DNA of 64,000 nucleotides. Source: Octopus vulgaris (taxonomy: Eukaryota). The stretch is from contig OX597822.1 in the NCBI GenBank assembly GCA_951406725.2, positions 88,722,001 to 88,786,000 on the forward strand, given 5' to 3'. Below the pieces are notes generated by a model. It was not told the origin of the DNA. It did no database searches and was given only the letters and a program-made list of their open reading frames with translations. The position numbers were made by a program, and so were the translations under genes. Each line of letters opens with the position of its first letter. Within the stretch, counting starts at the first letter, position 1. Of this stretch, positions 42,301 through 48,300 are shown piece after piece.

Positions 42301-45300
42301 TTCGTCTTTTGTTTTTTTCGTAAACTCTCCCTGTACCACCAAACTGGCCCTCGTGCCGGTGGCACGTAAAAGCACCCACTACACTCTCGGAGTGGTTGGC
42401 GTTAGGGAGGGTATCCAGCTGTAGAAACTCTGCCAGATCAGATTGTGGTCTGATTCGCCAGACCTCAGTCAAATCATCCAACCCATGCTAGCATGGAAAG
42501 CGGACATATGATGATGATGATGATATATATATATATATATATATCATATAATTTTTTTATGCTAGAACTAAAGGTAAATAACACTATGAGTGTAGATAGT
42601 TGGGTTAAAACAACTCTTAGATGGACACAATTGAAAGTGGCCCAAGCACACAAACAAGTGTGTGTGTTATAATCTTAATTAGAAAAGGAACAGCAAAGTT
42701 AGTTGGCCAACTAGGATCTTTCTGTTGGCGGATTGTAAGAAAGTGACCGAAAAAGAATGAGTTTCAACAATTGAGGAGAATAAGTCAGTTTTAGATGGGA
42801 AGAATTGATATTAAGAAGAAAATGTTGTTAAATATCTTTATTACACCTACGTAAGAAAGAGATGCTACATTGATTAGATCTGTGGGAGATAAGTAAAGTC
42901 ACTAGAAAATGGATGTGGTATCATACTGTTATCATATCAGGATTTTATACATGAAGATTAACTCTTAAATTGTTCAGCGCTCTTCAAGAGATTACACTTG
43001 GTGTTCAGTCAGATGTTCCTGAGATTTGGCATCACAGGAACCCAATATATCTTATGTGTGTGTGTCTATGCACGTGCACACACACATGTATATATATATA
43101 TCATTGGCTGTAGGAAATGAAGTAGGTAAATACATACAACCTGTGTTTCTTAGGAGGTTATGTAACAATAGGTTATTGCTGAAGCATGCTCAATGTCTCT
43201 GTAGCAGACTTCCCAAGTTAAACGCAAAATCTCATGTTAGCTCTTTGTTCCTGTCCATGACAAAATCGCGGCCTACAACATAACACGGGATCACAAAATA
43301 CACAAATTTCACATCTTGCGAAGTAAACTCAGCACACTGCCTCATAAAGGTTACTGCTAGTTCTCACTGAGCACGCAACCATGTGGTGTCATCTGTTGGC
43401 GCACTACAGAAGTAGTCCGGGAACTTATTGATACCACCTTGTATTGGGTTAAACGACCCTTCAAACAGAAAAAGTTAAAGACTTCAATGACATGCTTTAG
43501 TGTGCGTGTGTATTCATGTATATGAATGTATATGCTTTGTTATAAACAGAAATACCTCTGACGAAAGAAGCATTAATTTTTTAGTTCATTCAGCTTTTCT
43601 CAACTGATCAATAAACCAATTGAGAAACCTATCAGTAACGAATGTATAATGACTGTTGGAAACAGCTGTAAGCCAAATTTACTCCAATAAATGAAAAATA
43701 TGACCGTTATTTATAGCTTGTCATGTATGTGTGTTTGCGCGCGCGCACACACATTACAGTAATCCCTCGCCATATCGCGGTTCACCTATCGTGGTTTATT
43801 ATTTGCGTTTACGTCGATTCCTCTGTGGTGTTGTTTTGCATTCATAATAAAATAAATATATACAAATTATAAAATAATTAAAAAATATACAGTACAGTAG
43901 TTTCTACTTCGCGGATTTTCACCTATCGCGGTGGGGTTTGGAACGTAACACCCGCGATAGTCGAGGGATTGTTGTATGTGTGTATATATATTACGCACGG
44001 GGGTCGATGTAATCGACTTAATTCGTTTGTCTGTCCTTGTTTGTCCCCTCTGCGTTTAGCCCCTTGTGGGTAGTAAAGAAAAAGTATATACATATATATA
44101 TATATATATATATATATATATACCGGAGTAAACACATAAATGTGAAACAAGGTGGAAAAAAGAGTACTTAAATACCAGTGGTAGAGTAATATGCTTTATT
44201 TAAAGCAGCAGAAAATTCAACAAAACCTGTTACTCTGAGTTTCCCGTTGCCGTTCGTCGGACATGTCCGACGAACGGCAACGGGAAACTCAGAGTAACAG
44301 GTTTTGTTGAATTTTCTGCTGCTTTAAATAAAGTATATATATATATATATATAAGTCTGACATAAGTTTTGTAAAGTAGGATTTTGTTTTCAATTAAAAG
44401 CACGGTACTTGTCAATTGTCGTGGTCCCGGTTTTGCACACGCGAATTTGCGCGTGCGCGCGCGCCAGACGTAGGTACTCGATACTCGAGATCCTACGAGG
44501 TGACTTGCGCATGCGCAGTGCAGAATTCGCGCGTGCGCGTTAACCCCCCCCCTAAAAAAAGGTGTTGGATTTCACTAAAAATATATATGTGTGTCTGTGT
44601 GTGTGTGTGTGTATATATAACATTTTCAATTTTACACAAAAAAATTACATAGTCGCTTTCCTCGCGGATTTACAGAGAAATGAATTAATTACTATTTTAC
44701 AGAATAAAATTAATGAATTAATTATATAAATTAAATAATTCTTGAAAATTAATTAATATTAATAATATTTTTTGAACAAAGTAAATAATTTATAAAACTT
44801 GGTTAATAATTTTTTTTTACACAAACGCGAACGTATATAATTTGTGAAACTTTTTTTTTTTTACAGACGTATATAATTTGGTAAACTTAATGAATTAATT
44901 TCTTCTCATCATCATCATCGTTTAACGTCCGTTCTCCATGCCAGCATGGGTTGGACGGTTCGACCGGGGATCTGGGAAGCCAGAAGGCTGCACCAGACTC
45001 CAGTCTTATCTGGCAATGTTTCTACAGCTGGATGCCCTTCCTAACGCCAACCACTCCGAGAGTGTAGTGGGTGCTTTTTACATGCCACCCGCACAGGTGC
45101 CAGGCGAGGCTGGCAACGGCCACGGTCGGATTGGTGCCAGTCGAGGCGGCTCTGGCATCGGCCACGATTCGGATAGTGCTTTTTACGTACCACCAGTCTA
45201 GGGGTCCTGGCATTTGCCGGGTGCCACACTTGCCCCAACATGTCTTCGCAAGCAAAGGGGGTTGGCATGGGTGCCTGTCGTGGGATGAGGTTCGATATCA

Positions 45301-48300
45301 ACTTCGCTTGCCTCAACAGGTCTTTGTGTATAAATGTATAAATTTTTCGCACTAAATTCTTTCCGTAGAATTTATCAAAAAACGCGCAAAATTATTCCGT
45401 AGACTTTATCAAATTAAAAAACGCAAAATTAATATATTTTTTGAAATTGCAAATTATTTAGAATATAAAACAAATTAAGTTAAATTTTAAAAATAAATGT
45501 CATATACTTATACTCTGTAAGGTGCTGTGTTCACACTTCAATTTACTATTTTCTAGAAATGTTGCTTTTCTAATTGAAACAATTTTTCTCAATCTCCATT
45601 TAAAAGTCCATAATGCCTCTTGAGCCATATCAAAATGAACAACTTTGAATTACCCGGTGGTGGTGGTGGTGGTGGTGGTGGTGGTGTGAGGTTCTAATTT
45701 TTTTTCTGATCTCTCTTTGCCCCCTCTTTATCTCAGTTGTTCATTCAGCTAATATTTAGAAAAATTTTCGCGCCCAATTTTTGTTGTCGCGGGAAAAGAT
45801 GAACGATTTAAAATAAATATATCTTAATTGTAGTGTGAGAAAGTATATATATTCTGATGACAAAATATATTATCTTTCAAAAACATCCCAAATTTATAGA
45901 CTATATCGTGTAGGTTTAAGAAATATATATATATATATATATATATATATATATATAGATATATATACATATATAGTAGAGAATGAAACATCTTTCATCT
46001 GTCTCCCCACCACACCTCCATCTAGGGGGGGCAAAGAGAGATCAGAAAAAAATTAGAACCTCACACCACCACCACCACCACCACCGGGTAATTCAAAGTT
46101 GTTCATTTTGATATGGCTCAAGAGGCATTATGGACTTTTAAATGGAGATTGAGAAAAATTGTTTCAATTAGAAAAGCAACATTTCTAGAAAATAGTAAAT
46201 TGAAGTGTGAACACAGCACCTTACAGAGTATAAGTATATGACATTTATTTTTAAAATTTAACTTAATTTGTTTTATATTCTAAATAATTTGCAATTTCAA
46301 AAAATATATTAATTTTGCGTTTTTTAATTTGATAAAGTCTACGGAATAATTTTGCGCGTTTTTTGATAAATTCTACGGAAAGAATTTAGTGCGAAAAATT
46401 TATACATTTATACACAAAGACCTGTTGAGGCAAGCGAAGTTGATATCGAACCTCATCCCACGACAGGCACCCATGCCAACCCCCTTTGCTTGCGAAGACA
46501 TGTTGGGGCAAGTGTGGCACCCGGCAAATGCCAGGACCCCTGGACTGGTGGTACGTAAAAAGCACTATCCGAATCGTGGCCGATGCCAGAGCCGCCTCGA
46601 CTGGCACCAATCCGACCGTGGCCGTTGCCAGCCTCGCCTGGCACCTGTGCGGGTGGCATGTAAAAAGCACCCACTACACTCTCGGAGTGGTTGGCGTTAG
46701 GAAGGGCATCCAGCTGTAGAAACATTGCCAGATAAGACTGGAGTCTGGTGCAGCCTTCTGGCTTCCCAGATCCCCGGTCGAACCGTCCAACCCATGCTGG
46801 CATGGAGAACGGACGTTAAACGATGATGATGATGAGAAGAAATTAATTCATTAAGTTTACCAAATTATATACGTCTGTAAAAAAAAAAAAGTTTCACAAA
46901 TTATATACGTTCGCGTTTGTGTAAAAAAAATTATTAACCAAGTTTTATAAATTATTTACTTTGTTCAAAAAATATTATTAATATTAATTAATTTTCAAGA
47001 ATTATTTAATTTATATAATTAATTCATTAATTTTATTCTGTAAAATAGTAATTAATTCATTTCTCTGTAAATCCGCGAGGAAAGCGACTATGTAATTTTT
47101 TTGTGTAAAATTGAAAATGTTATATATACACACACACACATATATATTTTTAGTGAAATCCAACACCTTTTTTTTTAGGGGGGGGTTTAACGCGCACGCG
47201 CGAATTCTGCACTGCGCATGCGCAAGTCACCTCGTAGGATCTCGAGTATCGAGTACCTACGTCTGGCGCGCGCGCGCGCGCGAATTCGCGTGTGCAAAAC
47301 CGGGACCACGACAATTGACAAGTACCAAAAGCACTTAGAAAAAAAGCTTTTTAAAACACTTCTTGACGATAAATATCAAATTTTAGATCAGAAATTATTG
47401 TTCCTACATCGTTGATTGTAAAAATCGAGAGAACAAGAATAGTATCAAGTCCTAACAGACATACACAGACACTCCATATGGACCCTGTCGTAACATATCT
47501 TAGCATGAATATCTAGCTAAGCCGTGAGTGCATGTGTTGTTGGTGTGTAGTCAACACACACGCACAACATGATTTCGTAATTTGTTCTCAGAACATGCTA
47601 CCGTGCGCATATACAAATGCTTACGTATGGAAGTAGACACGTGTATCCGTGTAAATAAAGATCGATGGAAGGCGACTTTAAGAAAGGTCTTTATGTGAAG
47701 GTAATGGGGGACGTATTAATTCAAATATCTATACCAGTGGTTTTCAACCAGGGTTCCGCAAGAAGTTACAAAACTGCTAAAATCGGCAGTAATTTTTAAT
47801 TCTCCTGTGCAGATATGTGTGCATAAGACTATTAAATTATTGCACACGGGTTCCTCGAGCCAGTGGAATGTTTCTTTGGGGTTCCGCTCCAGCAAAAAGG
47901 TTGAAAAGCACTGATCTATACACATACACTCTTGAAGAGAAGAAAAGTTCCGCGGATGTTATTTCTAAATAAAACATTGTATATTTCTATCTAATGTACT
48001 TAGATATTTCTATCTATTTAAGGTATACTAATTTAAAGTGGCGTGTATAATTTAAGGTATGTGAAGACGTTAAAAATGTTCATTGGCAGTTTAACAATAT
48101 TCCTCTTTACATGTCTCCGGCCTTAACAGAAACATAATCACATCGGACGGACGGACACTCACACAAGCACGCACCCTGTGCGTGTGTATGGGATTGCATG
48201 TAAACATTACTTTAGAACGAAACCCTCATCAAATTTCAATAGAAACGGATTGATAAAATTCTATTAACATTCAAAACTATTGAGCATGACATAAAATAAG

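Follow-up and report, generated by a model that had tools for sequence, protein, structure and literature searches.

An inverted-repeat element in a CREB3-family intron

The 64-kb stretch of Octopus vulgaris DNA analysed here (the window; contig OX597822.1) carries an element of 2,923 bp at 44404-47326, within the first coding intron of a CREB3-family gene. The element consists of two near-identical inverted arms (terminal inverted repeats, TIRs) around an AT-rich spacer, and is bounded by an exact 8-bp target-site duplication (TSD). It is likely a DNA transposon of the cut-and-paste type, a non-autonomous member of the Merlin (IS1595-related) superfamily, belonging to O. vulgaris or a sister species, and its polymorphism at this site is strongly indicated. 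The original prediction had described a 2.9-kb foldback transposon in CREB3 intron 1, with ~1.3-kb arms differing by a few substitutions and repeat lengths, an exact 8-bp TSD and a ~300-bp spacer devoid of transposase, and all of these points agree with our measurements. The features referred to below are the following (SINE, short interspersed element):

44396..44403, + strand: left TSD copy, AAAAGCAC, exact 8 bp
44404..45727, + strand: left arm, 1,324 bp, 5' start GGTACTTGTC
44404..44560, + strand: GC/CpG-rich terminal segment, the outer ~150 bp of the arm; probable ancestral TIR and putative transposase-binding region
44906..45324, unstranded: SINE-like high-copy repeat of the left arm, 419 bp, with its (CAT)n end at 44906
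45728..46023, unstranded: spacer, 296 bp, AT-rich, non-coding, with a (TA)n tract, multi-copy
46024..47326, - strand: right arm, 1,303 bp, end GACAAGTACC
46417..46835, unstranded: SINE-like repeat of the right arm, mirroring the left copy with one difference in 419 bp
47327..47334, + strand: right TSD copy, AAAAGCAC, exact 8 bp
26938..49704, - strand: host, first coding intron of the CREB3-family gene, 22.8 kb

The TSD copies adjoin GGTAC (44404) and GTACC (47326) without a gap, the TIRs cannot be extended outwards, and a 9-bp TSD does not fit. The probability of a chance 8-bp match is ~2e-5 from base composition, or ~1.6e-4 from the 10 plus-strand occurrences of the 8-mer in the window. Compared with each other, the arms, which make up 90% of the element, show 1,296 matches, five substitutions (44448, 44454, 44544, 45199 and 45725) and five indels, all of the latter within homopolymers or microsatellites, e.g., (GGT)10 versus 7; their BLAST identity is 97.7% over 1,326 columns. 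The GC content of the spacer is 26%. A Pfam scan of the 54 stop-to-stop frames of at least 22 aa in the left arm and spacer detected no transposase family, and five frames gave weak unrelated matches below the cut-off. No second copy of the element terminus was found within the window.

The outer terminal segment contains a 17-bp motif, GAATT(T/C)GCGCGTGCGCG, twice (arm positions 40-56 and 120-136), and AT-rich filler lies between this segment and the SINE-like repeat. The repeat has eight long matches elsewhere in the window at 77-90% identity, in addition to shorter ones, and its summed depth in the contigs described below is far above that of the rest of the arm. A SINE-like class is suggested by how often it occurs, by its size and by the (CAT)n end; no Rfam match to it reached the gathering score. 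The copies in the two arms, of which the original prediction makes no mention, are identical at 418 of 419 positions. Tandem Repeats Finder detected microsatellites only and no long tandem arrays in the element, which means that the arms are not built of tandem modules. Over 44000-46100, a search of Rfam at E up to 1 gave 12 matches, attributable to hairpins and microsatellites, and none of them reached the gathering score.

Probable polymorphism and copy number in sequencing runs

Among 24 sequencing runs, 19 contained part of the stretch and four were aligned to the spacer, right arm and right flank, three of them as contigs (X1, X2 and X4) and one as raw reads (X20). X2 originates from another study with the same organism label and shows 0 and 1 flank differences, whereas X4 is from a second organism (organism B), ~1.6% diverged. 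The filled right junction is covered in X1 by a contig aligned over 47316-47749 (434 of 434 letters, no differences), which holds 11 nt of the TIR, the TSD and the flank at a depth of 56.8 versus 47.9 for the adjacent flank contig, i.e., at single-copy level. The flank contigs of X2 and X4 align over 47327-47749. They break exactly where the TSD begins (47327) and continue for 66 and 89 further letters, respectively, which do not match the element; a left flank of 66 letters would extend through a (TA)n tract to a neighbouring palindrome. These observations strongly indicate that the insertion is polymorphic, with the assembly and X1 carrying it and X2 and X4 lacking it, and it is probably young. 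X4 additionally carries 17 extra letters at 47342-47344, just right of the TSD.

The depths of arm and spacer contigs exceed that of the flank, which in each of the two organisms indicates a family of at least tens of copies. Single arm contigs reach 96-179 times flank depth in X2 and 90 times in X4, with spacer contigs at 58 and 27 times, respectively, so that spacer depth is ~1/3 to 1/2 of arm depth, near the expected arm-to-spacer ratio of 2:1. Multi-copy depth was observed in three of the three contig runs and the empty-site pattern in two of the three. Together, depth and the presence/absence pattern support the earlier proposal of a recently mobile element, with the insertion itself probably recent. 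Further, the summed depth of the tip bin (47222-47304) is above that of the non-SINE inner-arm bins in all three contig runs. Two joints, 46358-46901 and 46930-47242, which between them bypass the SINE region and part of the subterminal arm, have a depth of 529 in X2, 1,645-1,948 in X4 and 0 in X1, and contigs of X2 and X4 link the terminal segment (47242-47326) to 46901-46930 via 18 other letters at ~32-33 times flank depth. The joints suggest a shorter relative without the SINE region, and the terminus is probably shared with such a shorter sister family.

Several points weigh against this picture of a polymorphic multi-copy insertion. X1 is possibly the same sample as the assembly source. 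The empty site that the earlier proposal said to look for in other samples is indicated by the break at the TSD in X2 and X4, but we infer it from the break point. Contig depth is a rough guide and not a true copy number, and the two sides of joint 46358-46901 are separated by further letters. No contig of X1, X2 or X4, as aligned to the spacer, right arm and right flank, spans the whole element; the inner spacer end and the start of the right arm were masked as repeats, and the left flank junction lies outside the alignment. Read polishing may also have raised the apparent identity of the arms. The raw-read run X20 was uninformative, with three of 12.9 million reads aligned and none on arm-specific sequence; it was nearly empty on the SINE-like repeat and empty on the small flanking element at 47735-47912.

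Probable Merlin assignment and rival explanations

Merlin TIRs start with GG and Merlin TSDs are 8-9 bp (PMC8101967, in its searchable text). The element likewise starts 5'-GG, and its 8-bp TSD, measured in one of one insertion, falls within this range. Its terminus is identical over nine bases to the TIR start of Merlin F1 of Euglena gracilis (GGTACTTGT(T), also given as GGTACTTGTT) and over 10 to that of F2 (GGTACTTGTC), with no obvious similarity past base 10 in the displayed text; both families have 8-bp TSDs (PMC8101967 supplements) and encode DDE_Tnp_IS1595 (PMC8101967). These identities strengthen the Merlin fit proposed initially. In addition, one of the Merlin-hit sequences of the same paper, from Ptychodera flava, contains GGTACTTGTCAAT, which matches the element terminus at 13 of 13 bases. 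No DDE_Tnp_IS1595 frame was found in the left arm and spacer, and because of this lack of a transposase frame the element can only be a non-autonomous member of Merlin.

The arms, in comparison with the first-described Merlin TIRs of 24-462 bp (PMC8101967, citing Feschotte 2004), are far longer, and they are somewhat over the 1,000 bp tabulated for two zebrafish entries, Merlin-1_DR and the non-autonomous Merlin-N5_DR (PMC8101967 S1 Table). The likeness to these kilobase-TIR Merlins is one of tabulated description only. Merlin-N5_DR is ~4.3 kb by repeat coordinates and has 113-bp tandem repeats; unlike it, the element consists mostly of arms, has no long tandem arrays and carries a SINE-like copy in each arm. 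The O. vulgaris annotation of 2026 lists 18 Merlin families, two of which were recently active with 11 insertions totalling 28,998 bp (PMC13282606, in its searchable text), a mean of 2.6 kb that is near the 2.9 kb of our element; these active families are from the same or a sister species, and the likeness is one of size. The idea of an undescribed giant-TIR family as a new kind of element is not sustained by these zebrafish and O. vulgaris entries. Merlin transposases are plentiful in Octopus: besides the 18 families of O. vulgaris, 191 Merlin protein sequences are present in O. bimaculoides.

Against the Merlin assignment it counts that it draws on the ends and one TSD, the TSD length being that of a single insertion with no other copy's TSD for comparison, and that no autonomous partner with the same ends was found, no whole genome having been searched. 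The terminal 9-mer occurs in just two Merlin families, both from one species, within the searched text, and the comparison of termini is partial because long sequence runs are shortened in the supplement text. The 13-base match in P. flava is a sequence match and not a demonstrated TIR. Separately, the 18-mer terminus was encountered at 18 loci in metagenome contigs, which were rejected as chance matches: none extends by more than one base, none has a perfect inverted partner, one has a one-mismatch 10-mer without a TSD, and no BLAST match to the element was obtained.

We regard it as unlikely that a long-TIR non-autonomous transposon was moved here by another superfamily, whether of the Mutator/Phantom-type Foldback, P/Galileo-type or hAT kind. 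The ends of hAT and P elements usually begin with CA or TA, which counts against these two. Long Foldback-like TIRs are known with both Mutator-like element (MULE) and P transposases, a single TSD was measured in our element, and the recently active families of O. vulgaris include 21 of Mutator and 21 of hAT versus two of Merlin (PMC13282606). Tm1, a Mutator/Foldback element of Meloidogyne, resembles our element in its long TIRs, non-autonomous copies and empty sites, and its TSDs range over 8-10 bp; however, they are mostly 9 bp, where the element shows 8 bp in one case, and Tm1 has asymmetric terminal motifs and TIRs of 14-bp tandem repeats (PMC3169594, as far as its searchable text goes). 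Tandem-repeat modular arms of the Tm1/Phantom type were not found in the element, which has short dispersed motifs only. Galileo has 7-bp TSDs (PMC3573991, in its searchable text), while the element has 8 bp and, in the scan of left arm and spacer, no P-type open reading frame. Against all these superfamilies, the first 9-10 bp of the element are the same as the TIR starts of Merlins with 8-bp TSDs. The original prediction had also invoked MULE to account for the long arms, which is unneeded since TIR length serves poorly for classification (PMC3573991); Foldback-like arms arose with several transposases (PMC3169594), so that long arms by themselves are no sign of MULE.

Two further explanations do without transposition of the two-arm form. 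A one-off local inverted duplication of a single-arm repeat, by template switch or aberrant repair, would fit the near-identity of the arms, the perfect 140-bp palindrome 70 bp to the left and the fact that no whole second two-arm copy was seen. It is nevertheless very improbable, given the exact TSD at both sides and a spacer that is itself multi-copy at ~1/3 to 1/2 of arm depth in two runs. An assembly or long-read foldback artefact is extremely unlikely. All the indels lie in homopolymers or microsatellites, where indels are typical of long-read error, and no spanning read was seen, but several observations speak against it, as the original prediction had argued in part: the TSD, a distinct spacer of 296 bp, X1 contigs that carry the filled right junction, and the empty-site pattern seen in X2 and X4.

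Proposed arm growth, host gene and significance

Under the Merlin assignment, a Merlin DDE transposase supplied in trans would bind the GC-rich terminal ~150 bp and make an 8-bp staggered cut. The ancestral arms would have been much shorter, and a SINE-like copy and AT-rich filler may have come to lie inside one end. Repair or recombination would then have copied ~1.1 kb from end to end, leaving near-identical arms around a 296-bp remnant; alternatively, an inverted copy of one end may have taken the place of the other end. The transposase gene would have been lost during this growth. Our analysis favours arms that probably grew by internal sequence copied from one end to the other. Two independent SINE insertions are excluded because the copy is 10-23% diverged from its relatives yet near-identical between the arms. 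The model matches the repair/recombination model for Galileo 2RT, whose longest TIRs (~1.26 kb) all belong to non-autonomous copies (PMC3573991). The 2TIR/2RT forms of Galileo in Drosophila mojavensis resemble the element in being non-autonomous with TIRs grown by internal-sequence recruitment, but belong to the P superfamily with its 7-bp TSD and are therefore analogous members of another family. Both kilobase-TIR Merlins and TIR growth by recruitment have precedent in the sources cited. Dating of the insertion from arm divergence (0.38%, or ~0.5 million years at 0.0036 per site per million years) was rejected, because the arms of DNA transposons are not re-copied at insertion and their divergence dates at best the last arm-copying event.

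The host gene was identified with P0002, the O. vulgaris CREB3-like 3-B protein, which has a 98% match to a bZIP exon at ~17.8 kb on the minus strand. By tblastn, its coding exon 1 maps to 49812-49705 (aa 1-36) and exon 2 to 26937-26443 (aa 37-201), both 100% identical; lying between these exons, the element belongs to the first coding intron and is 2.4 kb away from the splice donor. The insertion is most likely a near-neutral intronic passenger. Further along the gene, aa 356-638 match 8687-9550 on the minus strand in one stretch (83%), probably the last CREB3 exon plus intron sequence into which the alignment overruns, and aa 376-411 also match 12542-12649 (97%). A 1.9-kb (AT/AC) microsatellite array occupies 10190-12100 in a CREB3 intron. 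The intron that holds the element also contains a broken long interspersed element reverse transcriptase at 28231-28818 on the plus strand (RVT_1, E=1.3e-8 for 28231-28488). ALG3 exons lie at 50400-60240 on the plus strand (PF05208, E=4.7e-15 at 59888-60235), and ALG3 appears to begin head to head with CREB3, at a distance of ~0.6 kb from the start codon of the latter. The palindrome left of the element (44194-44333, 70-bp arms, no spacer) is single copy in the window and has miRNA-like Rfam matches below the gathering score. To the right, at 47735-47912, is an element of ~178 bp with CAGTG(G/C)TTTTCAACC ends and ATCTATAC on both sides as an 8-bp TSD, whose summed contig depth is up to ~10^4 times that of the flank. 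This small element resembles a hAT-type miniature inverted-repeat transposable element.

No description of the 2,923-bp element was found in the literature, with Repbase, Dfam and the Zenodo library of O. vulgaris outside the search; the element is possibly already contained in that 2026 library (PMC13282606, Zenodo). Among the matches listed for GGTACTTGTC in main texts, all are unrelated by title. Judged by titles and the openings of abstracts, no paper found on Octopus and Merlin deals with a foldback element, and the combination of Merlin, MuDR, GG..CC and TSD had no literature match.

The element, of modest importance, represents a clean, young and probably polymorphic case in which TIRs expanded in a superfamily other than P or Mutator. 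The SINE-like copy common to both arms records how events followed one another, the SINE coming first and arm copying later. It suggests that Merlin elements moved recently in Octopus. A more far-reaching possibility, which we hold to be doubtful, is a currently mobile Merlin family in which SINE-bearing 1.3-kb arms are standard and are kept identical by arm-to-arm copying, with a predicted double-stranded RNA substrate for ADAR that is polymorphic in CREB3. Heavy repeat-directed RNA editing is part of the background of this animal group (PMC9068888, in its searchable text). If this were true, each intronic insertion would give the pre-mRNA a ~1.3-kb near-perfect duplex, a strong predicted ADAR substrate, and the probable presence/absence polymorphism in CREB3 intron 1 would provide a natural allele-specific test of the effect of one such insertion on editing, splicing or expression.

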